Below, piece after piece: positions 14,338 to 64,000 of a stretch of DNA of 64,000 bases; position 1 is the stretch's first letter, and every line of letters starts with the position of its first letter. The position numbers and the translations under genes were made by a program. This stretch comes from Candidatus Omnitrophota bacterium (GTDB taxonomy: Bacteria > Omnitrophota > Gorgyraeia > B26-G9). Under the pieces are notes generated by a model, which was given only the letters and a program-made list of their open reading frames with translations, ran no database searches and was not told the origin of the DNA. The DNA lies in contig JAZDHZ010000036.1 of NCBI GenBank assembly GCA_043805415.1, forward strand, positions 4,194 to 68,193, in the 5' to 3' direction.

Positions 14338-14338
14338 A

Positions 14339-15922: not shown

Positions 15923-15948
15923 TAATTTTCATCTCGATTATTATAATT

Positions 15949-27032: not shown

Positions 27033-27033
27033 T

Positions 27034-27561: not shown

Positions 27562-27562
27562 G

Positions 27563-28156
27563 ATGCCCAGCGATAGAAATAACATGATTAAAAAAATTAC
27601 AAACCAAATTCTCCTGTTTTTGATTTTTCATATCGCGTCTTGCCTTGCTTGTCTTGCTCAATCCGCAGAATCGGATTTATTAGTTGAAAATGACGCGGCT
27701 TTTAATTATTACAAAATAATCGAACAAAGGAATTTTTTCCGTCCTAAAAAAGACCTAAAAAAAGCCGAAACCGAGTTAACGGAAAAAACCCAAAAGCCGG
27801 AAAAAGACAGTTTGGATTTTATTCTTACCGGGGTTATTGAAAGTAAAAATGGATACAAAGCAATTGTTGAGCAAAAAAGCTCAAAAAAAGGATTTTATGT
27901 CTCGGTTAATGAAGCAATTGAAAACTATACAGTTAAAGCAATCATGCCCAATAAAATTTTGATTGAAAAAGATGGTCAGGAATTTGAATTAAAGTTACAG
28001 CAAGGCAGTCAGCAAAAAGAGCAGGCCGCACCTCCCGCGATAACAGCGGCTGATTCTGCTCAACAAACTAATAATGAAGAAACACAACCAACTCCACAAA
28101 CTTTAAGAGAAAATACAATACAACAAATCCGGTCTGGCACTAGGGGGACAAAATGA
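27563..28156 (+). CDS. PilP/GspC-like protein with an HR domain.
   Basis: Signal peptide. The C-terminal segment GYKAIVEQKSSKKGFYVSVNEAIENYTVKAIMPNKILIEKDGQEFELKL fits the PilP/GspC HR-domain pattern. It overlaps the secretin start by 4 nt. Confidence 0.55.
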   Translation: MPSDRNNMIKKITNQILLFLIFHIASCLACLAQSAESDLLVENDAAFNYYKIIEQRNFFRPKKDLKKAETELTEKTQKPEKDSLDFILTGVIESKNGYKAIVEQKSSKKGFYVSVNEAIENYTVKAIMPNKILIEKDGQEFELKLQQGSQQKEQAAPPAITAADSAQQTNNEETQPTPQTLRENTIQQIRSGTRGTK

Positions 28157-29977: not shown

Positions 29978-30145
29978 ATGGACAAAAAAGATCAAAAGCC
30001 AAAACAGAAAAAAAAGTATCAGCCGCCACGCGTTGATACTCGGGAAATTTATGAAATAAACGCGTTAGGCTGCGCTAAATGTGTTAATGCTAGCAGCATC
30101 TCGCTGAGTGTCAGCTGTGTTCGCGGATCAAAAAAATATTCCTGA
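29978..30145 (+). CDS. Possible small protein (55 aa): a Lys-rich N-terminus followed by a Cys-containing C-terminus.
   Basis: RBS AAGGTG 5 nt before the ATG. Sequence MDKKDQKPKQKKKYQPPRVDTREIYEINALGCAKCVNASSISLSVSCVRGSKKYS. It is below the ORF-track size cutoff and has no family support. Confidence 0.25.
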   Translation: MDKKDQKPKQKKKYQPPRVDTREIYEINALGCAKCVNASSISLSVSCVRGSKKYS

Positions 30146-33570: not shown

Positions 33571-33695
33571 ATTTTTGTTTTTCTGCTTTTCCTAATCGCT
33601 AAACGTTTATCCTGAGCAAAGTCGAAGGGCTATTCGCTAATCGCCGCTTTTTTTGTTTTTCCTAACCGCTAAACGCTAATCGCTATCCGCTGCTT
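33571..33695. repeat. Composite intergenic repeat element, copy C. It has two core copies (...TTTTTCTGCTTTTCCTAATCGCTAAACG... and ...TTTTTGTTTTTCCTAACCGCTAAACGCTAATCGCTATCCGCTG) and abuts the giant gene stop.
   Basis: Read directly from the sequence. Matches copies A and B. Confidence 0.8.
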
Positions 33696-51800: not shown

Positions 51801-52640
51801 CCTCGACTCAAGGCCTATGCTATGCGAGCCCGCGCTAAGATTTACCACTGAAGTTATAAATACCGGCTGCCAGTCAGTAGTATCCTGCGCTTCCAGCATA
51901 TAGTGCCGATTTGCCGCATCCGCGTAAGGCTTATACGTACTGTTATCAATATTTATCCTTATTTGCGAAGAGTCTGAGACATTATTAACATCCAGTTCAC
52001 AATACCCCATAATCAGATACTGTCCGGCAGAAGCGGGACTGATACTTAAAGAAGCTCCCAGATTTTCCCAGACCATGCTGGAAGTCATCGCATAACTTGC
52101 CGCGCCGGCATCAGTATCATAAGCATATTGATAACCGGTTTGCGAATTAATCGGGATCGCGATAAGCCGGGAACGCTTTACGCGAGTCGTGGTACCATCA
52201 TCATTGCGGTGGTCAAAATCAACGTACTGCGAACCACTTAAATTTTGCGCCACATAAAATCCGGAAACAGTTGTATAATTAGTTATGTTTACTGTTTCAA
52301 TTTTAACCGCGTCATTAGCTGAATATCCCATCAACTGAATACTGTTATTCAATTGAACCTGCAATTCCACACTATCAGCAGCAGTAGCTCCTTGCCACTC
52401 CAATTCCCACATGATCAGCCAATCAGTATTCGGCTCGGCAGTCCATCCCAAAGTATTATGTTCCGTCCAGGTTGTTGTGCTTGTACTGGTTTGTTCATTG
52501 AGGTTTTCACTGCTATACCATACATCATAAGCTCTAGCAGAGGGAGAAAATGCGCCTATCAGCAAAAAACAAAACAAAATTAAAAAGAGAATTCTGTGGG
52601 ATTTAGCAATCTTAAGTTTTTTAAAAAAATAATTTCTCAT
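39801..52640 (-). CDS. N-terminal ~4280 aa of the giant secreted adhesin. It has a signal peptide, two ~200-aa N-terminal beta-rich domains, three FN3-like modules, ~21 Ig-like 119-aa repeats, and an embedded DUF2341+LamG (MshQ-like) module.
   Basis: The start was set at the second Met (MRNYFFKK...), preceded by GGGGAAGGG. Signal peptide RILFLILFCFLLIGAFSPSARA. The repeats are seen directly. The DUF2341-like segment is WSFHKEITIDRTKV...NFPVLISI...IYMYYGN and the LamG-like segment is ...ISAWFNY...QWHKVDFRRVGTMVYFYVDG. The frame ends at a TAA 37 nt after a C5 tract. Confidence 0.85.
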   Translation of the reverse strand: MRNYFFKKLKIAKSHRILFLILFCFLLIGAFSPSARAYDVWYSSENLNEQTSTSTTTWTEHNTLGWTAEPNTDWLIMWELEWQGATAADSVELQVQLNNSIQLMGYSANDAVKIETVNITNYTTVSGFYVAQNLSGSQYVDFDHRNDDGTTTRVKRSRLIAIPINSQTGYQYAYDTDAGAASYAMTSSMVWENLGASLSISPASAGQYLIMGYCELDVNNVSDSSQIRINIDNSTYKPYADAANRHYMLEAQDTTDWQPVFITSVVNLSAGSHSIGLESRMDDATSGTIRKQRIFAMRLSGIYDFFLDQQYASSQASTASTSNQLLATATIPADTPGEYLIIGQAFGRTSSLSYLQYHEFSHDAADPATDVIQATEYRDYKDLTDYMNANYMAIVNFDANQHEVKAWHRASGGTVYSKDVELFAIRRPADYIKPTVNISVTPNPVGEISSGSLEIKLVFSETMNTGVTPSVTYDPQGDTLAQPCTGGIWSTTSEMNDTYTVYNDNAITAQTGDGPAVVSVSAAQDLAANIMVADGNDTFFIDTTIPINPTLPCSAWDSSSKINPISNDTWQESDNTPYFEWTGATDTGGTGVSGYSVYWGNDANGEPGLTQGQTASNYNVSSGTEDGVYFLRVRTFDVIGNYSEPITLFTFRYDVGAPLNPDIPCAAWQTNLKINPISNNTWQEADDTPYFEWTGANDSGGSGLSGYSVYWGTDINGAPGTNQEQGNANYEVSTPMGDGTYYLRIRTFDNLNHYSTPVTLFTFKYDATAPLNPAIPCNAWDSASKNTLISDNTPQGIDSTPYFEWTGAADGNGQGVSGYSVYWGINPEGNPATVQEQATAQYNVISDANEGTTYYLRVRTFDALGHYSEPAATLFTFIFDSTKPTVSVGVLPDPSGHRAPGELTFTLLFSESMDTGTNPIVTYDPSGATGVQNASLNGYWSTTNNPNDTYTVYNSSAINSATGDGTAAIAISAAKDIAGNIMLNDTNDTFTIDTAIDHFVITHDGSALINTLETITITAKNITNCTVNDFTGQITLSTLNETNQITWTLVSGSGSFVDNGVDNDSATYTFNAADNGVVVLQLTCSAANNLDIEVTDGTHSDDDAEGTLVVSTTALGWFVIEHDNAGVAGVKENVKVTAKDTNGQTKTDYVGTINLDTNGTPTTISWTISTGLGTFSEGGASVDTAQYTFNPNDNGVAIFTIKDTKAETLNILVDDSGIHDNDIEGNLVIAPTALDHFIVGHDAQAIAGIADNVTIIAYDIYNNIKTDYAGTMTVDTNGTATTISWAKISGNGVLTDGDSSVDTATYGFVLSDAGAVVLSITDTKKETIDIDASAEGKTDTDAEGTMVVSAAAIDYFLISHDNAASSGVSEQVTVTAKDIYGNTKSDYSGTITLDTDGTASAISWAKTTGNGIFNDNGESVDTATYAFDSADNGIAVFAITDITAESINISVSGDGKIDNNAEGNLVVGPAIIWSFRVVHDGAGNAGVAETVTITALNSIGQIKTDYTGTITIDTSGTPAAISWAKISGNGTFNDGGTAVDTAVYTFSALDNGVVTLAITDNVVENIDIDISGSGKTDDDSEGLLNIDTALLHHFLIAHDGQAIAGTNENITITAKDTLGQTKTDYTGTIYIDTDGTASTINWTKISGSGTFVDDGSSADTCSYTFSAADNGVVVLAMADTFTETINIAVSGSASDDNSEGLLQVLPGALTKFIISHDNNAFTGQPEHITIAAYDGFNNIKTDYTGSIIVDTTGTATTITWSKYQGAGAFVDGGASVDTATYTYGSADFGVVTLDLTDTTAETINISVSGGGMTDDNTEGNLVITQFLLANWSFHKEITIDRTKVMANLTNFPVLISITDTALRDNARSDGFDIVFTASDGNTKLDHEIESFDKTTGILVAWVKIPSLLSSADTKIYMYYGNSAASDQQNKSGVWDTSYKGVWHLNNDPSATAPQEKDSTSNNNAMTSYGTMTNTDLIDAKIGKGIDFDGSNDYFKKTSPVGVGTPGDYTISAWFNYISSPASYSTIYDHNNYAPQFGFYNQSVAMVYHNGLITSSGTATHNDGQWHKVDFRRVGTMVYFYVDGALHGTGTHSATFPTATSALIGWSNYSTEYWLGKLDEVRYAITARSPEWIATEYNNQNSPTTFISVGLAATATANPVITDTIPVGQTGNLILDVSVTNNEGSTLTINSVTLNNVGTVSDSEISAVKLYYDSNNSLDYTPEVDTQVGNSGFSSGSKIFSGFNIDIPAGATQYLFAVIDLSSACASGKLLDVAIPISGIGFSNGKKLGSAVLNSSGTRQTYIGLDHFLISHDGAAIAGLDENITIIAKDAYGNTKTDYTGTITVDTNGTPESITWSKYAGSGVFNDGGVSLDTAIYTFTQSDAGVVVLNISDEIAEIINISASGDGKSDDNTETDLTVSAGLVNHFIVSHDGSGIAGAGEIISVTVKDSFGNTVNNYSGQITLGTNGSVDDINWTLDSGSGVFFNNGAGAGTAIYTFDPSDTGLARFEIVDNKAETLNIIAVGDGKYDDDSEGDLIIAPGELNHFVISHEGQAIAGNAEAISITALDGFGNIKNNYTGTINLDTTGTATKITWALNTGNGIFTDNGASLDTATYTFNALDNGTAVFNLTDTKTETINISVSAGSVTDDNTEGNLVITSGDIDHFVINHDGIATTDVSEQVMITAYDAYENIKDDYTGVTTLDTTGTVTTISWTLISGEGVFNDAGSSADTATYTFVPADAGIVILSIIDYTAESVNISVSGDGKNDSNNEGDLVFVSSGIDHFLIVHDGNAIAGIGESISIYAKNANGDTLTSYGGQITIDTTGTSGTIAWALQSGNGTFNDSGADADTCSYMYDDSDLGVVVLTITDSSEESVNISVSGEGKSDNNTEGNLVFNPAGLHHFTITHDGNAVAGIADTVTIAAKDANNNTLTAYTGQIDLDTTGTATTISWAKITGNGSFSDGGALADTATYSYVASDNGTCVLSITDTIVESLNISVSGAGKSDDDKEGTLTVGPGAIDYFSINHDGSAVAGIADNITIVAYDSYGNIKTNYTGQISMDTNGTAGTITWAKATGLGTFVDGGASVDTATYTFLAADNGQCILKITDTTAESLNISVTGDGKTDNDSEGNLIVGPTSIDHFVVNHDGNAEAGVAETVTIKAYDSYLNIKDNYTGTITLDTNGTATTITWLKITGNGVFTDNGALVDTATYTYADSDDGIVVLSVSDTKKENIDIDVFGGGKTDNDSEGNLIVGPTSIDHFVIIHDGNAEAGVAENVTVRAYDLYSNIKDNYTGTITLDTNGTATTITWSKITGNGTLADGGALVDTATYTYADSDDGIVVLAITDTKKEVINLAVFGDGKNDTNAEGDIIIGPSLIDHFTIFHDGSAVVNLGESITIYAKDVWENIKDNYTGQITLDTNGTPTAIDWTLTAGVGVFQDGGASLDTALYTFSDADDGMVVLSLNDSTAETINILVSGDGKSDDNTESNLVINPVGGLNTGYLSPTANSGNFTSPANAYANDASRATSYNGQSQQYYNYGVNIPAGSTILGIAVQLDAYASSTTGLTQGLVELSWDGGTSFTTTGKITPDMITSEVTYVLGGPTDVWGRTWTVDNFTNANFRVRINASTPSTTIYLYLDWIPARIYYELPPDAIANAVSTTPIAAGASNVLSLDVTVTNTASQARVINSLVINNTGTLSDTEISSLKLYYDSNNSNDYTTGVDNQVGSGVFNSGTKTFTGLNISVPASGSEDIFVVCALAQTVNDADTLDIQIPVNGISFVYGVQIEDTVLNSAGIIPVSLALDHFVIQHDQSAITGIPEQITLTARDIYGNIKTSYSGTITLDTTGTATAITWAKVTGNGIFTEGGASVDTATYAFSASDNGTAVFSLVDNKAESINISASGDAKTDDNTEGNLVIASGGIDHFLITHDAAAIAGIAENVTVTAKDAFNNTVSNYTGQINLDTNGTAAGISWQLLTGFGIFTDGGQGVDTATYTFNASDNSTATFALTSTTAESLNIAVTGDSKSDDNTEGNLVVSAAVLDHFLLAHDGAAQAGILDTITITAKDQYGNTKKNYTEQITLDTNGTVSTITWAKISGNGTFVDGGLSVDTATYVYSLADDGVVVLSLQDTTLEQLNISVSGSGKTDDDTEGMLNVGPGIIDHFSIVHDGFALQNQPESIIIKAYDAYNNIKTDYTGLITVDTDGTANAINWALSTGNGVFNDGGASVDTATYTFAGADNGQVTLLLTDTVSEIINIAVSGDAKTDDDYEGGFGSSCRGISSF

Positions 52641-52702
52641 TTTACCCTTCCCCACCAACATATTTAAATACTATTTATAATTGATATAAAACACTAAACT
52701 AA

Positions 52703-52722
52703 TCAAGCAATTAATGTGCCAA
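52703..52722 (-). promoter_or_regulatory. Sigma-54 (-24/-12) promoter for the giant gene: TTGGCAC-ATTAA-TTGCT on the minus strand.
   Basis: Reverse complement of 52705-52724 reads TATTGGCACATTAATTGCTT. It has the GG-N10-GC spacing and a near-consensus TGGCAC/TTGC. It lies ~65-80 nt upstream of the MRNYFF start codon (52638-52640). An NtrC-type activator is encoded 1.2 kb upstream. Confidence 0.6.
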
Positions 52723-52883: not shown

Positions 52884-52914
52884 CTAACATTTCAAGCAAT
52901 GCTCATTATGTTAT
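52884..52914. promoter_or_regulatory. 29-bp imperfect palindrome TAACATTTCAAGCAATGCTCATTATGTTA (left copy). It overlaps the 3' end of the HUH-HTH gene, ~180-210 nt upstream of the giant-gene sigma-54 -24 element.
   Basis: Outer TAACAT/ATGTTA and inner AGCAATGCT dyad symmetry. A 28/31 match to the copy at 53844-53874. Confidence 0.5.
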
Positions 52915-53801
52915 ATTTGGTTATTATGGCTGGTAGCAGGATTACTGATTAGCTTGCGGGAAATAAGCTGTCGGCTTTTGTGTAACATTTTGGCGATTTC
53001 TGAAATTGTACAGCCGTTAGAAAGTAGCTGCTCCCCTAGATATTTTATAGCCGCTACATCTTCCGGTTGGGTAAAGTGCTTGATTTTTTTAGTTCTTTCT
53101 ATTTCATCACATAGCTTCAAGGTATCTTCATCTACGTTATCTACCTTATTTTTTGACTTCATGTAATATGCAAATTCCAGCCTAAACTTATTTAAGGCAT
53201 TTAAATCCTGAGAGATAGTATTTAGTTGTACATTTATAGCATCGTTTATTAAATTAATATATATTTCTTTTGATTTCTCAGTATTGGCGTTTAACATATT
53301 TAAGATAAAATCGCAATCAACAAAACTTTGCCTGCTAATTCTGTCTACAAATAAATTTAAAGAACTCCACCTGTATTTACCTAATTCCTTTATTAACCTT
53401 GCTTTAAGCGGATTCAAATGAATATACAAAGATATAGCAAGCAAATATTTCTCTTTTAAACATAAACACGCCCTAAAAGGCTTACAAAAAACCGGACCTT
53501 TTCTTGAGTATTTCGCATTAAGATATTTAGCGTATTTTTCAAATAAATATTTTGCTCCCAACGAAAGATTTTCATCTTCTATTTGAACCAATAAATGCAA
53601 ATGATTAGGCATCAAGCAAAATGAGAATATCTTCCAGTTAAATTTCTGCGGAATACTTTTTAACAATGAAAGCATGTAAAGATAATCGCTATCTTCTAGG
53701 AATAGCACCTCTTTCCCCGGCGCCCGGTGAGTAATATGATAAATAGCATTAGGATAGATTATTCTGTCCCTGGACAGCGGAACCCCTTCTATCTTTCTCA
53801 T
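52911..53801 (-). CDS. IS200/RAYT-like HUH (Y1) domain protein with a C-terminal DnaA-domain-IV-like HTH. Possibly a domesticated regulator or a small IS200-like element.
   Basis: YHITHRAPGKEVLF...FCLMPNHLHLLVQIE for the HUH motif, and KYSRKGPVFCKPFRA for the Tyr motif. The C-terminus CTISEIAKMLHKSRQLISRKL is HTH-like. Confidence 0.78.
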   Translation of the reverse strand: MRKIEGVPLSRDRIIYPNAIYHITHRAPGKEVLFLEDSDYLYMLSLLKSIPQKFNWKIFSFCLMPNHLHLLVQIEDENLSLGAKYLFEKYAKYLNAKYSRKGPVFCKPFRACLCLKEKYLLAISLYIHLNPLKARLIKELGKYRWSSLNLFVDRISRQSFVDCDFILNMLNANTEKSKEIYINLINDAINVQLNTISQDLNALNKFRLEFAYYMKSKNKVDNVDEDTLKLCDEIERTKKIKHFTQPEDVAAIKYLGEQLLSNGCTISEIAKMLHKSRQLISRKLISNPATSHNNQI

Positions 53802-53882: not shown

Positions 53883-55262
53883 TTAGCGGGGTTTTAGCTT
53901 GTGGGTTTTTAATTTCTTGTGCAGGTTCCTTCTGTCCAGGCCTATCTCTTTTGCTGCCCGGCTCACATTTCCTTCATGCCGCATAAGGGCCTCTGTTAAG
54001 AATCTCTGCTCAAAAGCCTCGATCGCCCTTTGCTTTGCTTTTTTAAAATTAAGCGTCCGCGACTTATCTCTTAGCTCAGCAGTCTGAGCAGTTCTCACAA
54101 CCTGCGGCAAATCAGCCAAATCAATCTTATTTTCTGTAGCCATAACCACAGCACGATGCACAATATTTTCTAATTCCCGCACATTGCCAGGCCAGGAATA
54201 ATCCATAAGAATTTTCAGCGCCGCACTGGTCATTCCCTCGACTTTTTTTGCTTCAATCCGGTTATACTTTAAAATAAAATGCTCCACCAGCATGGGAATA
54301 TCTTCCGCTCTATCCATAAGCGGTGGAATCCATAAAGGCACGACATTTAAACGATAGAAAAGATCCTCCCGAAAAGTACCTTTTTTTACCGCGTTTTCAA
54401 TATTTTCATTACTTGCCGCGATTAGCCGCACATCAACTGTCCGATTTAAGGCCTCGCCAACCCGCTTAATCTGCCCGTCCTGAAGAACTCTTAACAGTTT
54501 TGCCTGCACTTCTTTGGAAATATGCCCGATTTCATCCAGGAAAATTGTTCCGCCATCAGCCACTTCAAACAAGCCTTTTTTATCCTGACTTGCTCCGGTA
54601 AAAGCACCCCGGATATGGCCAAATAATTCACTTTCCAGTAAACTTTCAGTTAAAGCCGCGCAATCAACCGGCACAAAACTCTTTTCTTGTCTTGGACTTA
54701 AAGCATGGATTGCCCTGGCAACCAGTTCTTTTCCTGTGCCAGTCTGGCCTTGAATTAAAACCGTGCTTTTCGTGGGAGCTACTTTCTTAATCAATTCAAA
54801 CATTTTAAGCATAAACGCATTTTCCGAAATAATATCAGAAAAAGTATATGTTTTTTTAAGCTCTTGGCGCAAAGCTAAATTTTCCGCTTCCAGCCGCTTC
54901 TTTTCCAAAGCTTTATCTATAACAATCAATATTGCCTCAATCTCAAAAGGCTTTGAAAGATAATCATATGCCCCGGATTTTATTGCCCGGATAGCGTTTT
55001 CCATTGTGCCATATGCTGTCATCATAATAACTATTACCTGGGGAAACTTGGCTTTTATTTTACTTAAAAGCTGCAAACCATCCATACCCGGCATCTTAAA
55101 ATCAATTATTGCCAAATCCGGAACCTGCTTTTCAATTAATTCCAGGGCAACATTGCCATTTTCAGCAGTTGTAACTTTATAACCATTATCAATAAGCAAT
55201 TTATTTAAAAACTGCCTCATGCCTTGCTCATCATCTACAACTAAAATATGCTCTTTTTTCAT
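53883..55262 (-). CDS. Sigma-54-dependent response regulator (NtrC/PilR family: REC + AAA+ + Fis-type HTH).
   Basis: REC domain (DDEQ...D in IIDFKMPGMDG), Walker A GQTGTGKE, GAFTGA motif, ESELFGH, and a C-terminal HTH. Confidence 0.93.
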   Translation of the reverse strand: MKKEHILVVDDEQGMRQFLNKLLIDNGYKVTTAENGNVALELIEKQVPDLAIIDFKMPGMDGLQLLSKIKAKFPQVIVIMMTAYGTMENAIRAIKSGAYDYLSKPFEIEAILIVIDKALEKKRLEAENLALRQELKKTYTFSDIISENAFMLKMFELIKKVAPTKSTVLIQGQTGTGKELVARAIHALSPRQEKSFVPVDCAALTESLLESELFGHIRGAFTGASQDKKGLFEVADGGTIFLDEIGHISKEVQAKLLRVLQDGQIKRVGEALNRTVDVRLIAASNENIENAVKKGTFREDLFYRLNVVPLWIPPLMDRAEDIPMLVEHFILKYNRIEAKKVEGMTSAALKILMDYSWPGNVRELENIVHRAVVMATENKIDLADLPQVVRTAQTAELRDKSRTLNFKKAKQRAIEAFEQRFLTEALMRHEGNVSRAAKEIGLDRRNLHKKLKTHKLKPR

Positions 55263-55271
55263 TATTAATAT

Positions 55272-57227
55272 TTATCCCTTAATTGGTAACAATACTTCTA
55301 CTGAGGTACCTTTACCCCATTGACTTTCAATTTTTATATCTCCTCCATGAGCCTGGACTATGCCATAGCTTAAAGATAATCCCAATCCTGATCCCTTACC
55401 CTGATCTTTTGTGGAAAAGAATGGCTCAAAAATTCTATTTAGATTCTCTTTGGGAATTCCTTCCCCAGTATCTTTAAACAAAACTTTTATTTGATCACCC
55501 GCTCTTTGGGTTGAAATTTTAAGACTGCCGCCTTGCGGCATACTTGCTTCTGCATTCAGAATAATATTTATAAACACCTGCTCAAGATGGATCTGATCAG
55601 CTAAAACACTTGGTAAATTTTCCCCTAGGATTTTAGTAATTTCGATATTTTTATTTAAAATCCGGTTTTGGGTAAAGATTAAAGCATTTTCAATTGCCTG
55701 ATTAATATCCACAAAAACCATCTGCATTTGCTTTTCGCGGGCAAACTGGATTAAACTGTTTACAATATATGAGCAACGTCTTGTATAGCTTTCAATTGTC
55801 TCAAGCAGCTGGATTGATTCCTGAGGATTAGCTAAAGATTTTTTTTCTTTTAATTCTTTTATCAGCATTTGCGCGTGCCCCAAAATTACACCCAAGGGGT
55901 TATTAATTTCATGCGCAATCCCTGCGGATAGCACCCCGAGTGAAGCCATTTTTTCCGATTCAATCAGCATTTGCTGTTTGGCATTAAGATCCTTGGTTAC
56001 TTGTTCAATTTTATCTTGCAAACGCAGATTCCAATCTTCAATTTCTTTTTTAGAACCAGCTAATTCATCGGACATATGATTAAACGCGCGGGTTAAATCA
56101 CCAATCTCATCATTAGAAAAGATCATAACTTTTTTGGAAAAATCTCCCTGAGCAATGGCTTTAGTCATCTTTATAAGCTCATGAATTGGTCCAATAATCG
56201 ACAGCTTGAAAAATATTCCGATTATAAGCACAAACGCGCAAATAATCACAAAACTCATTAGAATAATCGAATTTCTCCGCGCGCGAATCAAGGAAAACAC
56301 TTGCTCTGATGAAATCAAAATCCCTACCGCGCCCAGTGATTTCTTTTGATTGTCTAAACTAATATAAAGCGGACTAATAATCTCCGTTAAATATTCCTTT
56401 TCCCCCACTTTATGCTTTATTACTTTTTCATCTTGCATCACCTTAAGATAAATTGATTTTTCTTGCTCGTTTAGCGCTAAATTACCGCGCCCTTTAGTCG
56501 CGGATATTAAAAACTGCAAATCTTTTAAAAATATTTTTATATCGCGGATTTCTTTATCTTTGAGCATATTACCGATTAAGTCTTCCAAATAAGTAGAATT
56601 TCTTTTAACCTCAGCTAAAACAAGTTCCAAAGATTTTGAAAGTGATGTCGCAAATCTTAAAGCTTCCTCTTTGTAGTAGGCATTGCGATTTTTTCTTAAG
56701 GCTGTAACAATCTCTCCTTTTTGCGAAGGAAACCTTGCTTTCATCTGCATAATCCCCAGCAGCTCATTCTTATTTATATCAGAGGCAAATAAAGGCAGAA
56801 AATGGATAACAATCTCCCGCCCCAACTCAGATTTAACAATAGCTCTTGAGCGCTTAGTTTTAAGCACATCATCAATTATTGATATATACTGAACCTCTGG
56901 CACTGATCCAATTTGATGTTCAGAACTAGCGGCAATAACAACTTTTTCTTGGGCAATAATTACAATTTCTTCAATATCTTCATTGCTCTGAGTTAATTTT
57001 TCTACGTTTTGTTGCAAAGCCTCATAGGCTCGCAAATTACTTCCCAGGATATTATCAAGATGCGCCCCGAGAATAGACGAGAATAACCCAGCCTTATCCA
57101 GGATGCGAGCTTTAAGCTCTTTGGTCTGCATACTGATTAGAAAGGAAAATACTGCGGCAATAATCACCACAATAATAACTATCTGGATTGTAAGTTTTTG
57201 AATCAGCCGATTATTCATAGCCCTCAC
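55272..57227 (-). CDS. Sensor histidine kinase with two TM helices flanking a ~280-aa periplasmic sensor domain, then HAMP, HisKA and HATPase_c domains.
   Basis: H-box HEINNPLGVI. N, D/G boxes (LNAEASMPQGGS, DTGEGIP, GSGLGLS). Confidence 0.9.
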   Translation of the reverse strand: MRAMNNRLIQKLTIQIVIIVVIIAAVFSFLISMQTKELKARILDKAGLFSSILGAHLDNILGSNLRAYEALQQNVEKLTQSNEDIEEIVIIAQEKVVIAASSEHQIGSVPEVQYISIIDDVLKTKRSRAIVKSELGREIVIHFLPLFASDINKNELLGIMQMKARFPSQKGEIVTALRKNRNAYYKEEALRFATSLSKSLELVLAEVKRNSTYLEDLIGNMLKDKEIRDIKIFLKDLQFLISATKGRGNLALNEQEKSIYLKVMQDEKVIKHKVGEKEYLTEIISPLYISLDNQKKSLGAVGILISSEQVFSLIRARRNSIILMSFVIICAFVLIIGIFFKLSIIGPIHELIKMTKAIAQGDFSKKVMIFSNDEIGDLTRAFNHMSDELAGSKKEIEDWNLRLQDKIEQVTKDLNAKQQMLIESEKMASLGVLSAGIAHEINNPLGVILGHAQMLIKELKEKKSLANPQESIQLLETIESYTRRCSYIVNSLIQFAREKQMQMVFVDINQAIENALIFTQNRILNKNIEITKILGENLPSVLADQIHLEQVFINIILNAEASMPQGGSLKISTQRAGDQIKVLFKDTGEGIPKENLNRIFEPFFSTKDQGKGSGLGLSLSYGIVQAHGGDIKIESQWGKGTSVEVLLPIKG

Positions 57228-58239
57228 TTATTAAGAATTGTTTTTGTTTTATTGTCTCATAAACTGCTGCATTAAGGCAAGCAATGCTTGATATCCCAAA
57301 AGCGTCACCGTCTTCAAGATAGGCTAAGCCAGGGCATCTTGTGCAAAAACATGATAGCTTGCAATTATTACATTGCTCAATATTTATTTTTTTTCTCAGC
57401 TTAGTTAAAAATTTCGAATTTGCCCAGATGTCTTTAAAATCAGCTTCAAAAACATTGCCTAATTTTTCCGGAAGCTGAATACAAGGATAAACATCGCCTT
57501 TGGCCGAAATACTGGCCATAACAGTCCCCGCAGGACAAGTAAAATCATCCGCAACTTGATTTTGAAAAACAGCTTTTTGCTTTAATAATGCATCTTGATA
57601 AAAAGCACCCAGCTGCTCCTCAGATAAGCGGTAAATTAAAACATCCTTTGATCCGTCATCTTTAGGCGAAACAATTGGGTCAATAATATAAGGCACCTTA
57701 AGCTCATTTGCCAGTTTAATCACATCTTTATACTCAGCAAAGTTGTCTTTCATTAATGTGCATTTTAAATTAACCGGAATTTGCTCATTTTTTAATAAGC
57801 TTATCGCGTTTATTGATTTAGCAAAAGCTCCTTGGCAGCCAGTAATCTTGTCATGGGTTTTTGCCGACGCGCCTTGAATACTTATCCCTACTTCACTTAG
57901 ATTTAATTTCTGAATAGTCTTAATATTACTCTGATTTATTAAAGTACCATTAGTAAACAGTGATAAGTCAAAGCCGCTTTGGCGCAAATAAAAACATATA
58001 TCAAAAATATCCTGTTTTGTAAAAATCTCACCGCCAGTTAGCGATAAAAACAAAGTCCCTGCCTGCCTTAATTGCCTGGCAATATCCTTAACCTGAGCAA
58101 AACTAAGTTCGGCATTATCTTTAAAATTATAACAGTGACAACAACTAATGTTGCAGCGCCTGGTCAGCTCAAGAACAACACTAATTGGGATTGCTTTTTT
58201 CTTTAAATCTTCTTTTACTTTATCCCAGATAGTTTTCAT
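57211..58239 (-). CDS. Radical SAM/SPASM-domain enzyme (peptide-modifying maturase type).
   Basis: CNISCCHCY (CxxxCxxC) plus the C-terminal SPASM cysteines CPAG...CIQL...CNNCKLSCFCTRCPG. Confidence 0.88.
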   Translation of the reverse strand: MKTIWDKVKEDLKKKAIPISVVLELTRRCNISCCHCYNFKDNAELSFAQVKDIARQLRQAGTLFLSLTGGEIFTKQDIFDICFYLRQSGFDLSLFTNGTLINQSNIKTIQKLNLSEVGISIQGASAKTHDKITGCQGAFAKSINAISLLKNEQIPVNLKCTLMKDNFAEYKDVIKLANELKVPYIIDPIVSPKDDGSKDVLIYRLSEEQLGAFYQDALLKQKAVFQNQVADDFTCPAGTVMASISAKGDVYPCIQLPEKLGNVFEADFKDIWANSKFLTKLRKKINIEQCNNCKLSCFCTRCPGLAYLEDGDAFGISSIACLNAAVYETIKQKQFLISEGYE

Positions 58240-58243
58240 TTAA

Positions 58244-58519
58244 TTATCCAGTTATTTCAATTATCGATTTTTCTGATAATTCTTTTAGAAAAATCTCAAC
58301 ATCTTCTTGTATTTGCCAAGGCGGAGCATCATACTCTGCTTGGATTTGTTCGAGCAATTCTTTCTGCTTTATTGGATTTTCAATCAATTGCCAGATTCTT
58401 CCTCCTACACCTTCGAGAATATGCATTTTTCTAGTTTGGCTTGTTACTACAATAATATTCTCTTCAACCTGCTGCCAAGCTGCTTGGCTGTTCCGCACTA
58501 TTGTTTTTGCTGATTCCAT
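58244..58519 (-). CDS. PqqD-family protein (RiPP recognition element-like peptide chaperone).
   Basis: The 91-aa length and the pattern ...AAWQQVEENIIVV...MHILEGVGGRIWQLI...ELLEQIQAEYDAP...EDVEIFLKELSEKSII fit the PqqD fold signature. Confidence 0.68.
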   Translation of the reverse strand: MESAKTIVRNSQAAWQQVEENIIVVTSQTRKMHILEGVGGRIWQLIENPIKQKELLEQIQAEYDAPPWQIQEDVEIFLKELSEKSIIEITG

Positions 58520-59285
58520 TAATTATCCTCCTAAGATCAAAATTGAATAAATCAACCCTATATCCGCGAATACAATCGCATACAGACTTAACCTGATTGA
58601 TTAACTTCTGATTAGATTCATCATCCCAGGCAAAAAAGAAAATATTTGCCAATAGATTAGAAAACGTTTCCATTTTACTTAAAACCCTAAAACCATTAGG
58701 TATATTTTTACTTAAAAATGATATCATCTGCAAATAAACACATTGACTTGATATTGGCCCATCAAATTCACCTTTAAACGGAGTTGAAAAAAGATAAACC
58801 TTGCCATTCACGTGTCTGATAATAACTAGTTCATCACTCAGAACTTGAAAATCTTTGGCCATTTTTGCTGTGGTTGTTTTCCCGCTTTCTGATGCCCCGG
58901 CAAATAAATAACCATTATCTTGGCAAGCCAGCCCAACCGAATGCACAAGAAAACCATTATTTTCTAATAATACAACGGAATAAAATACCCGTAAAAAACA
59001 ATTAAAAACCCCTGCTAAATCAGCTAAATGCACTTTTGCGGTCTTATGCTCCACATTTATGCTGCCGATAAACTCATCGCCTTGTACTTTAAACACCGCT
59101 TTTTTTTTAAAAACACTGATTGAATCTATTTCTTGAGGGGTATAATCATGGATGACTTCAATTAAAAAATAATCACTGCTGTCTTTGGCTTGGACAAATG
59201 CGCTAAATTCCTGGGCGATTTTTTTAATAAAATCAAGATCGTCACTTTTGATTTTTAAGCATATCCCGCCAATTGATAAATACAT
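58464..59285 (-). CDS. HprK-related kinase-like P-loop protein (HPr kinase C-terminal-domain-like), a family often clustered with PqqD and radical SAM genes.
   Basis: P-loop AGASESGKTTTA and the ~270 aa length. The 56-nt overlap with pqqD suggests translational coupling or a later start. Confidence 0.62.
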   Translation of the reverse strand: MYLSIGGICLKIKSDDLDFIKKIAQEFSAFVQAKDSSDYFLIEVIHDYTPQEIDSISVFKKKAVFKVQGDEFIGSINVEHKTAKVHLADLAGVFNCFLRVFYSVVLLENNGFLVHSVGLACQDNGYLFAGASESGKTTTAKMAKDFQVLSDELVIIRHVNGKVYLFSTPFKGEFDGPISSQCVYLQMISFLSKNIPNGFRVLSKMETFSNLLANIFFFAWDDESNQKLINQVKSVCDCIRGYRVDLFNFDLRRIINGISKNNSAEQPSSLAAG

Positions 59286-59312
59286 AGATGAGCTCGCTTT
59301 GCTTTTAATAAC

Positions 59313-60470
59313 TTAGACCCCAATAAGCTTAAACATTTTTCTGATTCCGTATAAGCTCATTGCGAAAAATCGCTTTAAATAATGCCAGAATGTTATTTTT
59401 TCAACTGCTAAATGAAAAAATTGCTTATCAATAAATATTGACTGCCAAAGGCATTTTAGTTTAGCAATAAATCCTTTTTTTGAAAACAAATAAAGCAGTT
59501 CTCCAGAGACATCTCTTCGTCTATTGTGCATTAACATATCTAGTGACCTTTTCTCAAAACTATTTAGTTTCAAGCATGAGAATTCCTTAATTAGCTTTTG
59601 AGGAACAGGCAAAATTCCATTAGCATCCAGATATTTTAATATGTAAAAAACAGGCTTTTCCAAACCATACTGCCGGGATTTTAAAACTAACTTATCCCAA
59701 TCAAAGTTATCTTTGCAATCAGATATAAGATTGCGAATATCATAAAACCAGATCAGCCTTGAAAATGAATGCTCTTGTAAATGCGCGCAACAATTAATTA
59801 CCGCGTCGTAAACTGATAAGGTTTTCACATAAACACTATTGCTTTTAGAAGCAATTGCTTCCAGCCAAATAACCGTGTTTTTTATATTTGGAGAATAAGG
59901 ATTTTGCGCTAATTTGTAAGAGCAGATATAATCCGCATGTAAATCAATAAATAAAGCACTATTATCAAACAAGTAGGGATAGCCTTTCGGGTGCTGATAT
60001 CCCAGACTTTCCAGTAAATTTTTAACTTTAGATATATCCTCTTTATGAATAACCAGATCCACATCACTCATACTTCGACTGCCCAGGGGATATATTCTAT
60101 TCAAAAAATCAGCACCCCGCAGTAATAATACCGCTATTTGATGCTCTTCAAAAGCTTGGATCACATTTTCCAGATGCGTAGTAATTAATAAATTTCTACC
60201 AAGATTACGCATATAATTCTGTTTAATTTCATACAATACCCATTCAGGCAATTTACTATTCAGCCCCCATTTACTAAGGTTATCAAACAATAAGCCATCA
60301 ACTCCTTCGGCAAAAACCTTTTTTAAAAACAAATGCCAGTTAAAATAAGGCAGATTAACTCGGTCTATTGCCTGTTGACAGTCAGAAGGATTGCGCAAAC
60401 AAGCAATAAGCATCTTGTCTATGGCCGCGGCAGAATTTACAGCATTTCTATAAATATTCATATTATTCAA
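59313..60470 (-). CDS. NTP_transf_5-family (uncharacterised nucleotidyltransferase) protein.
   Basis: LLLRGADFLNRIYPLGSRSMSDVDLVI matches the characteristic G-x-R-x-M-x-D-x-D-L-L-V core. ~385 aa. Confidence 0.65.
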   Translation of the reverse strand: MNNMNIYRNAVNSAAAIDKMLIACLRNPSDCQQAIDRVNLPYFNWHLFLKKVFAEGVDGLLFDNLSKWGLNSKLPEWVLYEIKQNYMRNLGRNLLITTHLENVIQAFEEHQIAVLLLRGADFLNRIYPLGSRSMSDVDLVIHKEDISKVKNLLESLGYQHPKGYPYLFDNSALFIDLHADYICSYKLAQNPYSPNIKNTVIWLEAIASKSNSVYVKTLSVYDAVINCCAHLQEHSFSRLIWFYDIRNLISDCKDNFDWDKLVLKSRQYGLEKPVFYILKYLDANGILPVPQKLIKEFSCLKLNSFEKRSLDMLMHNRRRDVSGELLYLFSKKGFIAKLKCLWQSIFIDKQFFHLAVEKITFWHYLKRFFAMSLYGIRKMFKLIGV

Positions 60471-60473
60471 TTC

Positions 60474-60956
60474 TTAGGTTTGTCTTTGATAAGATAAAAA
60501 AGAGATTAAGCCTCTGACTATCTTTCTTAGCAGTCTTATCGGAATATAAAGAAAAGCTCCTATAATCATAAATCTCGAGATCAAAAAACCAGAGCGTCTT
60601 GCAGAATTAGTATCTAATCTTATTCTTTTCCTACCACTTTTTTTTTCAGCCACTTTCCCGATTAAATCTTGTTCGCGAACCGGCAAGTCAGGAAAAATCA
60701 AAGCATCTGCTTTGGTTTGAAAACTAGCCTTGTTGATTTTAAAAACCCGATGACAAAGCATCCGGCTTCCATTATAAGTTAAAACTATTTCTCCCACAGC
60801 AAGTTGTTCGACTCGGCAAGGAACAAGCTGGATAATATCCCTGCTTTTTAAAAAAGGATACATCGAATTGCCAATAACTGTTATCTGAAGATTACCTTTT
60901 CTTAGGATATCACGCTTATATGTTTCTGCCCGCGCAGCCTGAATAGCATTTTCCAT
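60474..60956 (-). CDS. S24/S26-family serine peptidase (signal peptidase I / LexA-like catalytic domain).
   Basis: VIGNSMYPFLKSRDIIQLVP Ser-nucleophile motif, a later Lys, and a C-terminal hydrophobic helix. Confidence 0.6.
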   Translation of the reverse strand: MENAIQAARAETYKRDILRKGNLQITVIGNSMYPFLKSRDIIQLVPCRVEQLAVGEIVLTYNGSRMLCHRVFKINKASFQTKADALIFPDLPVREQDLIGKVAEKKSGRKRIRLDTNSARRSGFLISRFMIIGAFLYIPIRLLRKIVRGLISFLSYQRQT

Positions 60957-60958
60957 TA

Positions 60959-62359
60959 TTATTTAATATATACTTTTATTGCCGCTTTTTTCTTATAGTC
61001 ATCGACCCATTGCTGGTACATATCATACTGTTTGATCATTTTTACTTTTTTAAGGTAATCCGCTTTTTTATTCTCAAATTCAGCTGGATCAGCCTTGCGG
61101 ATTTTCATTATTTTAAACACTCCATAGCCTTTATAAATCGAAGCCGGGGGATAAAATGCTCCAATTTGTTCATCGAGCATTTTATAAGCATCTTCTTTAG
61201 TAAAACCCCACATATGGATAAGAAAATCCAGCGCCACAAATCCCGGAACTTTAAAAGATCCAGGATCTTTTCTTTTTTCATCTTCCCAGAAACCAGGCAC
61301 TCTCCCTGACGCTGCATAAAATTTCTTTGCTTGGCTTTCCGAACCGAATCTCAGAACATCCGCTCCGCCTTCGGCAAATGTGTCAAAAAAGAAATTATAA
61401 GCAATCGCTACGGTTCTATTCTTTTTTAGAAAATCAGCATATTTCGATTTATCAACAATTTCCGGCTGCTCTTTTGCCGCTATTTTGCGCATTAGTTCAT
61501 CGCTTGTGGTAAAACCAGTAATATATTTTCTGAAATCAGCCGGTTCTACGCCAAATTTGTCCTTGATCCACTGATTATACTTATCAGTTTCCTCTTTCCA
61601 TTTAAAATTCACCTCATTATCGCGTAATAATCCCTCTATTGCTTTATCCACATCCGCGTCTTGCGCTTTGAATTTACGAATTCCTGCTTCATAAGAATAA
61701 ACCAGATCATTCCAAATTAAGTCATCATTCGCTTTTTGCGTAACTGGAATTATAGACTTTTCATAAAACTCTTGAGCTTGTTCTTTATCATCAAACTGCT
61801 TTAATTCAACCATAAGCGTATTGTACTCATTAAGAAACTTGTCATAAGCCTCTTCGTCTGACACTTCCGGATTAAAACCATCAATTATCTGATTTCTAAG
61901 TTTTTCCAGCTTTACCAAATGCTCCATCTGATTGCGAAAAACTTCCACTGGCTCGCCTAATTTTTCTTTAACCCATTGCTGATACTTTTCTTTATCGACT
62001 CTAAAGCTAAAATCAACCTTATTTGTTTGCAAAATCTTCTCGATTTCTGAATCTATCTCATTATCCGTTACAGTAATTCCCCGGTTAAATGACTCATAAG
62101 AAAAAAGCAGTTCTTGCCAAACAAGCTCTTCAAGCTCTGCTTCATCCTTGGGCGAGCCTCTCCATTTAGCGCCAAATGTCATTACTACCCTTTTAGCAAA
62201 ATAGTAATTCCCGACTGAAACTGGCACGCCAAAAAACTCACCCGCAACTTGAGATTCTTCATCCTGAGCATTCTGAGCTAAAACACTAGTGATATTGATT
62301 GTAGTTATTAGACAAATTGCTAAAAAACAAGCAATCCCGTTGCGATATGATTTACCCAT
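60959..62359 (-). CDS. Secreted protein with two SurA-N-terminal-like chaperone-type modules. Hypothetical.
   Basis: Signal peptide. Duplicated segments ...KYQQWVKEKLGEPVEVFRNQ... and ...KYNQWIKDKFGVEPADFRKY.... Confidence 0.45.
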   Translation of the reverse strand: MGKSYRNGIACFLAICLITTINITSVLAQNAQDEESQVAGEFFGVPVSVGNYYFAKRVVMTFGAKWRGSPKDEAELEELVWQELLFSYESFNRGITVTDNEIDSEIEKILQTNKVDFSFRVDKEKYQQWVKEKLGEPVEVFRNQMEHLVKLEKLRNQIIDGFNPEVSDEEAYDKFLNEYNTLMVELKQFDDKEQAQEFYEKSIIPVTQKANDDLIWNDLVYSYEAGIRKFKAQDADVDKAIEGLLRDNEVNFKWKEETDKYNQWIKDKFGVEPADFRKYITGFTTSDELMRKIAAKEQPEIVDKSKYADFLKKNRTVAIAYNFFFDTFAEGGADVLRFGSESQAKKFYAASGRVPGFWEDEKRKDPGSFKVPGFVALDFLIHMWGFTKEDAYKMLDEQIGAFYPPASIYKGYGVFKIMKIRKADPAEFENKKADYLKKVKMIKQYDMYQQWVDDYKKKAAIKVYIK

Positions 62360-62541
62360 AATAATCCCTCCTTAGAAAACTAACTTGAACCGCCCTATTC
62401 AAAAAATCTAAATCTTTATTGTGCTTTATTTTATCATACATCGTAATATTTTTTCAAGTCATATTAGAATAAGAAATATTGCTGCTCTGGGATAAAAAAA
62501 CATCTCTTGACTGCTAATTCGCTATCTGCTAATTTAATTAA

Positions 62542-63333
62542 ATGAGTAATTCAGATATTATACAAGTCAGGAATGTCGAGAAATCTTTCTTTCCCGTGCT
62601 AACTCTAGGGGATATCCTGGGAATTAGACTAAAAAGAAAACCGCCTGTTAAAGCTTTGGAGGATATCAGCTTTCAGTTAACTGCCGGCAAAATATTAGGC
62701 ATTCTCGGACCAAACGGAGCGGGTAAAACCACTTTATTAAAATGTCTTTGCAATTTAATTATTCCGGATAAAGGCACAATACTTATCGATCAATATTCTG
62801 GCGATAAATACCCGGCTAAAATAAAATCCCTGATTGGTTTAGTGGACAATGAGGAACGAAGTTTTTATTGGCGCTTAAGCGGCATGCAAAACCTAGAGTT
62901 TTTCGCTGCTTTGTACGGGTTAAGCCCTAAACAGACAAAACTTAGGATCACTGAGCTTTTATCTATTTTCAATATAGATTTCATGCTCAAACGTTTTGAT
63001 ACTTACTCGACTGGAATGAAAAGAAAGCTTTCGCTATTAAGAGCAATCATCCACAAACCTAAAATACTTTTAGTTGATGAGCTGACTAAAAGCCTTGATT
63101 TTGATACAGCCTTAAGCTTATATAAATTTATTAAGAATTTAAGCAATAATGGCACGACGATTATCTTAACCAGTCACAATATTCCTGAAGCAGAAAATCT
63201 CTGTAATACATTCATGCTGCTGGTGAAAGGAAAAATCTCAGCCATGGGCAATCTTGAAGATTTACGCCGGAAATTTAAAACCGCAAACGCGTCCTTAACT
63301 GATATTTACAAGATGGTGATGGAAAATGCTTAG
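62542..63333 (+). CDS. ABC transporter ATP-binding protein (ABC-2 exporter type).
   Basis: Walker A GPNGAGKTT, signature TGMKRKLSLL, Walker B LLVDEL. Confidence 0.88.
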   Translation: MSNSDIIQVRNVEKSFFPVLTLGDILGIRLKRKPPVKALEDISFQLTAGKILGILGPNGAGKTTLLKCLCNLIIPDKGTILIDQYSGDKYPAKIKSLIGLVDNEERSFYWRLSGMQNLEFFAALYGLSPKQTKLRITELLSIFNIDFMLKRFDTYSTGMKRKLSLLRAIIHKPKILLVDELTKSLDFDTALSLYKFIKNLSNNGTTIILTSHNIPEAENLCNTFMLLVKGKISAMGNLEDLRRKFKTANASLTDIYKMVMENA

Positions 63334-64000
63334 AAAAATTTTCGCGCTGCTTAAAAAAGATTTTTTACTGGAATCAAGCTATAAATTAGCTTTTATTATG
63401 AATATTTTCAGTGTCTGCGCGTCGCTGTTAATATATTTCTTTATTGATAAATTATTTGGTAACAATATGAACAAATACTTGGAAAAATTTGGGGTGAATT
63501 ATTTTTCTTATGTTTTATTAAGCATGGCTTTTTTCAGCTATATTGGAGTCGGAATCGGATCTTTTTCATCCCGGATTCGATTTGAACAATTACAAGGAAC
63601 GCTCGAATCCCTGTTCCTAACGCCCACAAAAACTGAAGTAATCCTATTAAGCATGACCATCTGGAATATTATCTTTGCCACAATAGATGTTATAATCTAT
63701 TTTATTTTTGGTGTATTTTTATTTAAAATAAATTTTAGCAGCATTAACCTAGTCTCGACATTTACCACACTTGTTTTAACTATTATTTCTTTCAGCAGTT
63801 TGGGAATTCTTTCAGCTAGCTTTATTTTAATTTATAAAAGAGGCAATCCCACAGCATGGTTAATCAGTACTTTAGAGGGTGTGGTTGGCGGAGTTTACTT
63901 TCCGATTAGTGTTTTACCAGGGTATTTGCAAATAGTTGCGCATTGTTTGCCGGTGACTTATGCGATCCGCGCCATAGAACTAGCGGTTTATCAAGGTTAT
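63326..64000 (+). CDS. ABC-2 family transporter permease (partial; continues beyond the window).
   Basis: The frame is open from ATG 63326 (8-nt overlap with the ATPase stop) to the window end. Translation MLRKIFALLKKDFLLESSYKLAFIMNIF... contains multiple TM helices. It is absent from the ORF track because it has no stop. Confidence 0.72.
   Translation, partial: MLRKIFALLKKDFLLESSYKLAFIMNIFSVCASLLIYFFIDKLFGNNMNKYLEKFGVNYFSYVLLSMAFFSYIGVGIGSFSSRIRFEQLQGTLESLFLTPTKTEVILLSMTIWNIIFATIDVIIYFIFGVFLFKINFSSINLVSTFTTLVLTIISFSSLGILSASFILIYKRGNPTAWLISTLEGVVGGVYFPISVLPGYLQIVAHCLPVTYAIRAIELAVYQGY

Follow-up and report, generated by a model that had tools for sequence, protein, structure and literature searches.

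The closest described relatives of the locus analysed here make peptides that are synthesised on ribosomes and modified after translation (RiPPs). In the linear polyphosphorylated peptide (LPP) family, found in Bacillota, the core set consists of LppS, LppB, LppK and LppN together with a pump resembling MsbA (Popov et al. 2026, Nat Commun, PMC13381572). LppS is a peptidase resembling signal peptidase I of the archaeal type (SpI), LppB a discrete RiPP recognition element (RRE), LppK an HprK-like kinase, and LppN a nucleoside triphosphate (NTP) transferase. The leader has the motif YxxPxVLxHQxIxFETxxS, and cleavage after T-1 needs LppB as well as F-3, E-2 and T-1; LppK polyphosphorylates core Ser3, and the catalytic residues of LppS are S29, H68 and D93. 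LPP clusters are embedded in capsular polysaccharide loci. The authors state that LPPs and paeninodins are restricted to Bacillota, and a radical SAM enzyme goes unmentioned in their paper (PMC13381572). For pseudomycoidin the kinase is PsmK, with the C-terminal Ser as its target, and the phosphate receives hexoses from PsmN, an NTP transferase (PMC6993621). We analysed 64,000 nucleotides (nt) from the metagenome-assembled genome of a Candidatus Omnitrophota bacterium (assembly GCA_043805415.1, contig JAZDHZ010000036.1, positions 4,194 to 68,193), hereafter the window, in which an initial annotation had described an operon resembling a RiPP maturation cluster with no visible precursor. We estimate at about three chances in four that this operon holds the enzymes of a RiPP system split in two, whose substrate is a peptide of 55 amino acids (aa) encoded in the same window, at 29978-30145.

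The gene inventory given earlier is correct: the eight operon genes of the minus strand and the divergent ABC pair were all found (Table 1). A search for a precursor near the enzymes gave nothing. Open reading frames (ORFs) of at least 20 aa across 57-64 kb were all within longer genes or without conservation, and the window and five orthologous loci (L001-L005) had no small ORF in common in the gaps between their genes; coding regions were masked in this comparison, which otherwise produced only noise. The statement that no precursor lies inside or next to the operon was therefore right. For the locus scans, alignment subsets A2 and A6 were used, because alignments A1 and A5 were too divergent. 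Scanning genomes with the kinase alignment led to a Stahlbacteria locus, L013, where a 56-aa ORF, MEGVQPQEEKKNKKLWVPPKMEVEKIYEMRALQCAKCESAATSTFTPSCLFAPPGS, is found between the radical SAM and peptidase genes, and a motif scan then revealed a homologue of this peptide inside the window, on the plus strand, MDKKDQKPKQKKKYQPPRVDTREIYEINALGCAKCVNASSISLSVSCVRGSKKYS. Of the three places where the substrate had been suspected, "encoded elsewhere" is thus the one retained.

The 55-aa ORF starts 46 nt past the secretin gene, at the 3′ end of a pilMNO-secretin operon, with an AAGGTG ribosome-binding site 7 nt upstream. It is annotated in the source genome as hypothetical protein V1747_08495. The predicted leader, M1-I27, contains Y14-Q-P-P17-R-V19 and Y25-E26-I27, and the predicted core, N28-S55, contains C32, C35, C47 and the C-terminal Ser55. 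Compared with its orthologues in L015 and L018, the ORF differs mainly at third codon positions, with synonymous changes exceeding non-synonymous ones, and it is under purifying selection. The secretin gene is likewise always followed directly, on its 3′ side, by the peptide gene in other Omnitrophota; on one contig of GCA_018817165 both peptide gene and cassette are found, 11 genes apart.

The link between this peptide and the enzymes is strong, and comes from other lineages. In the Elusimicrobiales locus L021, the gene order is kinase, PqqD, peptide, S26-like protein (GSSMLP...HRV) and radical SAM/SPASM enzyme; in the Armatimonadota loci L020 and L022 it is S24, PqqD and peptide; and in Sumerlaeota (L014) a family peptide, ...HYTRPVIVSQKSFETSALAC...NVS, is placed beside the kinase and NTP_transf_5 genes. 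A metagenome scan yielded 80 peptide loci, 25 of which were non-redundant with at least 3 kb of flank on each side. Near the peptide in these 25 loci we found a PqqD gene and an S26-like peptidase gene 24 times each, a kinase gene 20 times and a radical SAM/SPASM gene 19 times, and 16 of the 25 had the full order kinase, PqqD, peptide, S26, radical SAM. Co-occurrence mining, from which a conserved partner peptide had been hoped for, did find one. The initial annotation had also held that a precursor adjacent in orthologous loci would make this a standard known system: such a precursor is indeed present in distant orthologues, but the system is neither curated nor named.

The peptides form a large, unnamed family of RiPP precursors, in which clustering at 50% identity leaves 36 representatives and clustering at 90% identity at least 652 clusters. 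Every member is annotated "hypothetical", and the family is matched by no model of Pfam or NCBIfam. The leader pattern [YW]xxP...[FY]Exx-A-L-x-C is present in 146 of 148 members and the spacing C-x2-C-x9-11-C in 136. All 148 end with a hydroxyl residue (Ser in 142, Tyr in 4 and Thr in 2), and the metagenome copies end with Ser in 83 cases out of 83. The Tyr-terminated subgroup consists of P0040, P0048, P0052 and P0053.

Turning to the enzymes, the 160-aa protein is proposed to be a peptidase of the S26B type (archaeal-type signal peptidase I, or SipW-like), with a C-terminal hydrophobic anchor, and to act as leader peptidase. Its residues GxS31MxP, H69-R70 and D84 are invariant across eight cassette peptidases, and its orthologue in L013 reaches 72.6 bits with TIGR02228, above the cutoff, and also matches SipW. 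The NTP_transf_5 protein has a nucleotidyltransferase fold and the motif GS...DVD; by analogy with PsmN and LppN it is proposed as a secondary tailoring enzyme. Its gene is present in all Omnitrophota-type loci, but in only 1 of the 25 canonical metagenome loci. The PqqD protein, judging from its profile match, is a discrete RRE of the PqqD type. Its best NCBIfam match is lasso_PqqD_Bac, and its matches in the PDB are TbiB1 (5v1u, E 9.7e-8), PbaB1 (9x90, E 6.7e-6) and LppB (9x8z, E 7.1e-4). In the radical SAM/SPASM enzyme, CxxxCxxC and the full set of SPASM cysteines are visible; it scores below the cutoff of every NCBIfam equivalog, and we propose that it is a peptide maturase crosslinking the Cys-containing core. 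The PqqD, NTP_transf_5 and SPASM calls made earlier are thus all backed by profile matches.

The P-loop protein is a kinase of HprK/PEPCK fold, from the Pfam ScmC family, proposed to phosphorylate a Ser of the peptide. It is 100% identical to the P-loop protein V1747_08560 at NCBI. Its invariant residues are H115, G130-x-S-x-x-G-K-T-T138 and D151. An AlphaFold2 model (mean confidence score, pLDDT, 90.5) compared by Foldseek with the PDB matched ATP-PEPCK (E 1.8e-8) and HPr kinase/phosphatase (1knx, E 1.2e-5). The description as an HprK-related kinase consequently holds at the superfamily level, but not at that of the family TIGR04352: scores were 22.8 bits for TIGR04352 (HprK_rel_A) and 18.1 bits for TIGR04355, for cutoffs of 200 in both cases. 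As the PqqD protein did not match TIGR04353 either, the suggested membership of the TIGR04352-04355 system is abandoned. Searched by sequence against the PDB, the S26-like protein, the NTP_transf_5 protein, the kinase profile and the peptide profile had no significant match.

How does this set compare with known systems? The closest described one is the LPP family. The residues S31, H69 and D84 of the S26B peptidase match S29, H68 and D93 of LppS, and the discrete RRE, the HprK/PEPCK-fold kinase and the NTP transferase are likewise all present, in consecutive genes of the window (PF05402, PF27840, PF14907). Both systems are located in polysaccharide loci. The leaders may correspond as well, each having YxxPxV and then, directly ahead of where cleavage is predicted, an aromatic-Glu-Thr/Ile motif; in the window leader, YQPPRVDTREIYEI, the LPP elements come in the same order, with a spacing two residues shorter and without the H-Q pair. 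The family profile did not match the LppA leader chain in the PDB. Differences are also clear. LPP clusters have neither a radical SAM enzyme nor a Cys-patterned core, whereas the window system has both; the residue phosphorylated in LPP is core Ser3, where the window peptide has a Leu; the LPP exporter is of the MsbA type, whereas the only transporter near the operon is of the ABC-2 type and not conserved with the peptide; and LPP is reported from Bacillota only, with an adjacent precursor, whereas here the phylum is another and the precursor 27 kb away.

With the lasso peptides paeninodin and pseudomycoidin, the system shares the trio of PqqD (B1), HprK-like kinase and NTP transferase, as well as a Ser-terminated precursor (O-phosphorylated in the lassos) with a [Y/W]xxP leader (PMC6993621). 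Phosphorylation of the C-terminal Ser of pseudomycoidin fits the invariant C-terminal hydroxyl residue of the window peptide family, and in the PDB the PqqD protein is best matched by lasso B1 proteins. Unlike lassos, the window system has an S26-type leader peptidase and a radical SAM enzyme. No lasso cyclase (Asn-synthetase-like) and no B2 transglutaminase-type protease was found among the window ORFs of at least 150 aa other than the 4286-aa giant ORF. The sactipeptides and ranthipeptides (e.g. SkfA/SkfB) also combine a radical SAM/SPASM maturase with a Cys-containing core; here, in contrast, the RRE is discrete rather than fused, and a kinase and an S26 peptidase are present, which are outside known sactipeptide systems. 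In the window peptide the cysteines are spaced C-x2-C-x11-C, just as in SkfA, and there is a weak match to TIGR04404 (E 0.018, not significant). We dropped this resemblance as evidence of kinship, because the Cys spacing varies from 9 to 11 across the peptide family.

The SynChlorMet cassette (TIGR04248-04251) similarly contains a P-loop protein of the ScmC Pfam family (PF27840), a PqqD homologue and radical SAM/SPASM enzymes. It has two of the latter, the window system a single one, to which are added an S26 peptidase, an NTP_transf_5 protein and a two-component system. Scores with the SynChlorMet equivalogs were all far below cutoff: 11.8 for 125 with ScmC (TIGR04249), 18.2 for 100 with ScmD, 113 for 400 with ScmE and 82 for 400 with ScmF. 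These scores and the single radical SAM enzyme rule out a SynChlorMet cassette, the kinase belonging only to the broader PF27840. The TIGRFAM text is not known to identify a SynChlorMet precursor. We searched the literature for SynChlorMet, ScmC and the peptide motif strings, and found nothing relevant. Taken as a whole, we read the locus as a RiPP system split in two, similar in kind to LPP and SCM but with a radical SAM enzyme in addition, and with its precursor in the same window; the initial reading as a RiPP-type maturation operon is supported.

A plausible order of events is as follows. In the cytoplasm, the PqqD protein would bind the leader at Y14-x-x-P17-x-V19 and present the peptide to the other enzymes. 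The radical SAM/SPASM enzyme would then crosslink the core, with C32, C35 and C47 most likely giving rise to thioether bridges. Next, the HprK-fold kinase would phosphorylate a Ser hydroxyl, the best candidate being Ser55, as in paeninodin and pseudomycoidin, and the NTP_transf_5 enzyme might elaborate the phosphate, as PsmN does in adding hexoses to pseudomycoidin. Finally, the membrane-anchored S26B peptidase (Ser31/His69/Asp84) would cut the leader after Ile27, past the conserved [FY]-E-[TI], and the PqqD protein may assist this removal as LppB does for LppS.

Coordinates of the genes are collected in Table 1. The eight minus-strand genes, from that of the SurA-like protein to that of the sigma-54 regulator, form one operon: between 62359 and 53883 they are tightly packed, with gaps of 2 to 27 nt or overlaps, of which those between kinase and PqqD genes (56 nt) and between the end of the radical SAM gene and the start of the histidine kinase gene (17 nt) are examples. 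The packed minus-strand stretch taken as one operon covers 52.9-62.4 kb. The order S26, NTP_transf_5, kinase, PqqD, radical SAM, histidine kinase, response regulator is kept in Omnitrophota and related metagenome-assembled genomes, down to 28-37% identity of the kinase. Because the cassette order recurs in at least 6 independent genomes at 28-67% kinase identity, it is not due to chance. The histidine kinase is syntenic in seven Omnitrophota-type loci (L001, L003-L006, L011 and L012). Two local variants were seen: in L005 (8463-10004) the S24/S26 peptidase and NTP_transf_5 are fused in one 513-aa protein, and in L004 (7727-8821) the peptidase and NTP_transf_5 genes are separated by an insertion encoding an RpoN-like protein (Sigma54_DBD, 364 aa). 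The surroundings of Omnitrophota cassettes are polysaccharide loci, containing GT9, GT1, GT4, DegT, WbqC, PIG-L and Poly_export genes. A second radical SAM/SPASM protein, of 385 aa, is encoded in the window at 11568-12725 (minus strand), surrounded by glycosyltransferase, WbqC and PIG-L genes; it is unrelated to the cassette enzymes (20-25% identity).

Table 1. Position of the precursor candidate, the operon and neighbouring features in the window
Feature	Position	Strand	Size, match or context
Candidate precursor peptide	29978-30145	+	55 aa; family profile 78 bits, E 1.4e-22; sole copy in window
SurA-like secreted protein, first operon gene	60959-62359	-	466 aa, signal peptide; SurA_N_3 weak, E 1.7e-3
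S24/S26-type peptidase	60474-60956	-	160 aa; Peptidase_S24 weak; TIGR02228 48.4 bits, E 9e-13, cutoff 51.85
NTP_transf_5 protein	59313-60470	-	PF14907 E 1.6e-42
P-loop kinase	58464-59285	-	273 aa; precomputed Pfam match PF27840 ScmC
PqqD protein	58244-58519	-	91 aa; PF05402 E 8.8e-13
Radical SAM/SPASM enzyme	57211-58239	-	Radical_SAM E 6.8e-20; SPASM E 1.3e-11
Sensor histidine kinase	55272-57227	-	HAMP, HisKA, HATPase_c domains
Sigma-54-dependent response regulator (bacterial enhancer-binding protein)	53883-55262	-	Response_reg, Sigma54_activat E 7e-70, HTH_8
Predicted sigma-54 (-24/-12) promoter, TGGCACATTAATTGCT	52706-52721	-	45 nt upstream of giant gene ATG
Giant secreted protein gene	33695-52661	-	two ORFs, 4286 + 2057 aa; Beta-prop_ACSF4
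Divergent ABC ATPase	62542-63333	+	ABC_tran E 3e-25
ABC-2 permease, cut by window end	63326-64000	+	ABC2_membrane E 7e-16

The initial annotation had seen in this gene set a complete kit for modification, cleavage and export. This is not established, because none of the 80 peptide loci from metagenomes contains a homologue of the ABC-2 pump (ATPase or permease) or of the SurA-like protein. On this co-occurrence we rejected both as core parts, their synteny being confined to Omnitrophota: the SurA-like protein is syntenic in L001, L003, L006 and L012, and the ABC ATPase/ABC-2 pair only in L001, L003 and L006. The SurA-like protein is an Omnitrophota-specific accessory, probably a periplasmic chaperone. 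The divergent pump may be an exporter, outside the core, and could equally serve the adjacent polysaccharide genes; a match to the DrrA subfamily was below cutoff.

Beyond the response regulator comes the giant gene. In the window it is split into two ORFs, which overlap by 68 nt in different frames (junction 39801-39868), whereas in L001 and L003 it is a single ORF of 6130-6242 aa. The two ORFs align end to end with the continuous 6130-aa ORF of a relative, and are one gene of about 6300 aa with a frameshift within a repeat of about 119 aa, due to an assembly error or a real shift. The promoter TGGCACATTAATTGCT is the only perfect sigma-54 consensus in the window, and L001 (16778), L003 (16262) and L005 (15640) have an equivalent site in the interval that separates the regulator from the gene after it. 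Sites with up to 2 mismatches were at chance level (27 found, 32 expected), so that only the perfect, position-conserved site was used; scans for sigma-70 promoters and terminators were at chance level too. Because this conserved, perfect promoter precedes the giant gene, the two-component system co-transcribed with the cassette most likely switches that gene on. On either side of the giant gene are genes of the type II secretion system (T2SS) or type IV pilus (T4P) kind (13726-17673 and 24461-29931), encoding GspE, GspF, pseudopilins, PilM/N/O, T2SSC and the secretin. They match the conserved secretion locus reported beside Omnitrophota giant genes (West-Roberts et al. 2023); preprints on these genes describe the flanking T2SS-like loci and do not mention the cassette. 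With a shared operon and the sigma-54 promoter, peptide maturation would thus be genetically coupled to the giant adhesin and to the T2SS-like apparatus.

Three further observations concern these regions. A Y1_Tnp protein (IS200-like, HUH) with a C-terminal helix-turn-helix is encoded between the response regulator and the giant gene, at 52911-53801 (minus strand). Proteins in equivalent position in L001 (80% identity) and L004 (52%) suggest that the gene is syntenic and has been domesticated, and is not a mobile element. Another Y1_Tnp-like ORF is found at 3596-4753 (minus strand). The ParA/MinD-like ORF (24461-25225) and the PilM-PilN fusion ORF (24963-27032), both on the plus strand, are listed with an overlap of about 260 nt; the PilM start is probably further downstream, the overlap in L015 being 11 nt.

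A comparable layout exists outside Omnitrophota. Most canonical metagenome loci have a very large, open-ended ORF 0.5-2 kb after the radical SAM gene, on the same strand, of at least 1250-1970 aa, and most of these ORFs start with a signal-peptide-like hydrophobic N-terminus. In L021 (10787-18138) an Rrf2 regulator is placed between the cassette and a giant secreted protein gene. The layout [kinase-PqqD-(peptide)-S26-radical SAM]-[regulator]-[giant gene] therefore recurs in Omnitrophota and Elusimicrobia-type loci, the regulator being a histidine kinase plus sigma-54 activator in the former, and Rrf2 in L021, the sole annotated locus of the latter. This recurrence suggests a functional tie. 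The giant ORF follows the radical SAM gene and runs off the end of the locus in L021, L024, L028, L038, L044, L066, L080, L084, L100 and L102. An ORF of about 850 aa (CarboxypepD_reg in L021) also recurs 3-5 kb upstream in canonical cassette loci.

Several points weigh against a split RiPP system acting on the 55-aa peptide. In the window, precursor and cassette are tied by family-level co-occurrence rather than by adjacency, and with genes 27 kb apart on opposite strands their co-expression is an assumption. In the two Armatimonadota loci, Cys pattern and terminal Ser are retained although neither a kinase nor a radical SAM gene is found within 9 kb; the Cys and Ser residues may thus have some other role, unless the enzymes are encoded at a distance. 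The Leu at the position of the LPP phosphosite does not favour a modification of the LPP type, and NTP_transf_5, so seldom beside the peptide in the canonical loci, is rare outside Omnitrophota. LppN has no detectable activity in the published LPP system (PMC13381572). No dedicated exporter is conserved with the peptide in the 80 metagenome loci. Finally, direct observation covers the gene and family assignments and the co-occurrence of peptide and enzymes; which residue is phosphorylated, that thioethers form, what NTP_transf_5 does and where the leader is cut are all inferred by analogy.

Part of this could be explained if the Omnitrophota cassette were a decaying remnant deprived of its precursor, the ORF near the secretin gene having a different, unlinked function. 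The distance and orientation of the genes, and the fact that the precursor is adjacent in no Omnitrophota locus, would fit. All six enzymes nevertheless keep their catalytic motifs and order over 28-67% kinase identity, the peptide ORF is under purifying selection, and it belongs, as a single copy in the window, to the family of the enzyme-adjacent peptides found elsewhere, so that we consider decay very improbable. Slightly less credible still is the idea, put forward initially, that the substrate is a large protein, either the 466-aa SurA-like protein or the giant adhesin, and the cassette a protein-maturation system. In its favour are the lack of a precursor within the operon and the giant gene that comes after the cassette, both in Omnitrophota and in the majority of Elusimicrobia-type loci. 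However, a small peptide with a [YW]xxP leader, of the kind that would bind the RRE, adjoins the enzymes in the metagenome loci (PqqD and S26-like peptidase in 24 of 25 each) and in three other phyla; the SurA-like protein is missing from all 80 related loci, and carries a Sec signal peptide, while the enzymes of maturation are located in the cytoplasm; and the giant ORFs of canonical loci, homologous to one another, have no detectable BLAST similarity to the Omnitrophota giant protein. We take the giant protein to adjoin the RiPP system rather than to be what it modifies.

Two proposals concern what the peptide is for, and both are tentative. It might be the carrier or primer of a surface glycoconjugate: the C-terminal Ser would receive a phospho-sugar link from the kinase and NTP_transf_5, the nearby glycosyltransferases would extend it and the ABC-2 (Wzm/Wzt-like) pump would export it, giving a capsule- or lipopolysaccharide-like product and not a free bioactive peptide. 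The polysaccharide surroundings of Omnitrophota cassettes, shared by LPP and paeninodin clusters (PMC13381572), the hexoses added by PsmN to phospho-Ser (PMC6993621) and the pump adjoining the operon are consistent with it. Canonical metagenome loci are less so, a single one in 25 having NTP_transf_5 and none the ABC-2 pump, and we hold this outcome to be unlikely. It would in any case extend the split RiPP system rather than exclude it. With similarly low odds, the peptide might be a dedicated partner of the giant surface proteins, not an exported antibiotic, acting in Omnitrophota as a ligand of the co-transcribed histidine kinase or else as cofactor or cargo of the giant protein. If it were the ligand, a mature thioether-bridged phospho-peptide would close an autoinduction or contact-sensing loop, switching on the giant adhesin and a T2SS-like predation apparatus.

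Locating its substrate resolves what looked like an orphan RiPP cluster, and defines a large, unnamed precursor family. The logic of SpI-type peptidase, RRE, HprK-like kinase and NTP transferase extends past Bacillota to Omnitrophota, Elusimicrobiota, Armatimonadota, Stahlbacteria and Sumerlaeota, and it occurs there combined with a radical SAM/SPASM enzyme. The peptide family may also supply the missing type of precursor for cassettes of the ScmC family. As the cassette is consistently placed just upstream of giant genes and, in Omnitrophota, shares an operon with a sigma-54 regulator, it offers a testable handle on the control of giant proteins in these uncultured, putatively predatory bacteria.

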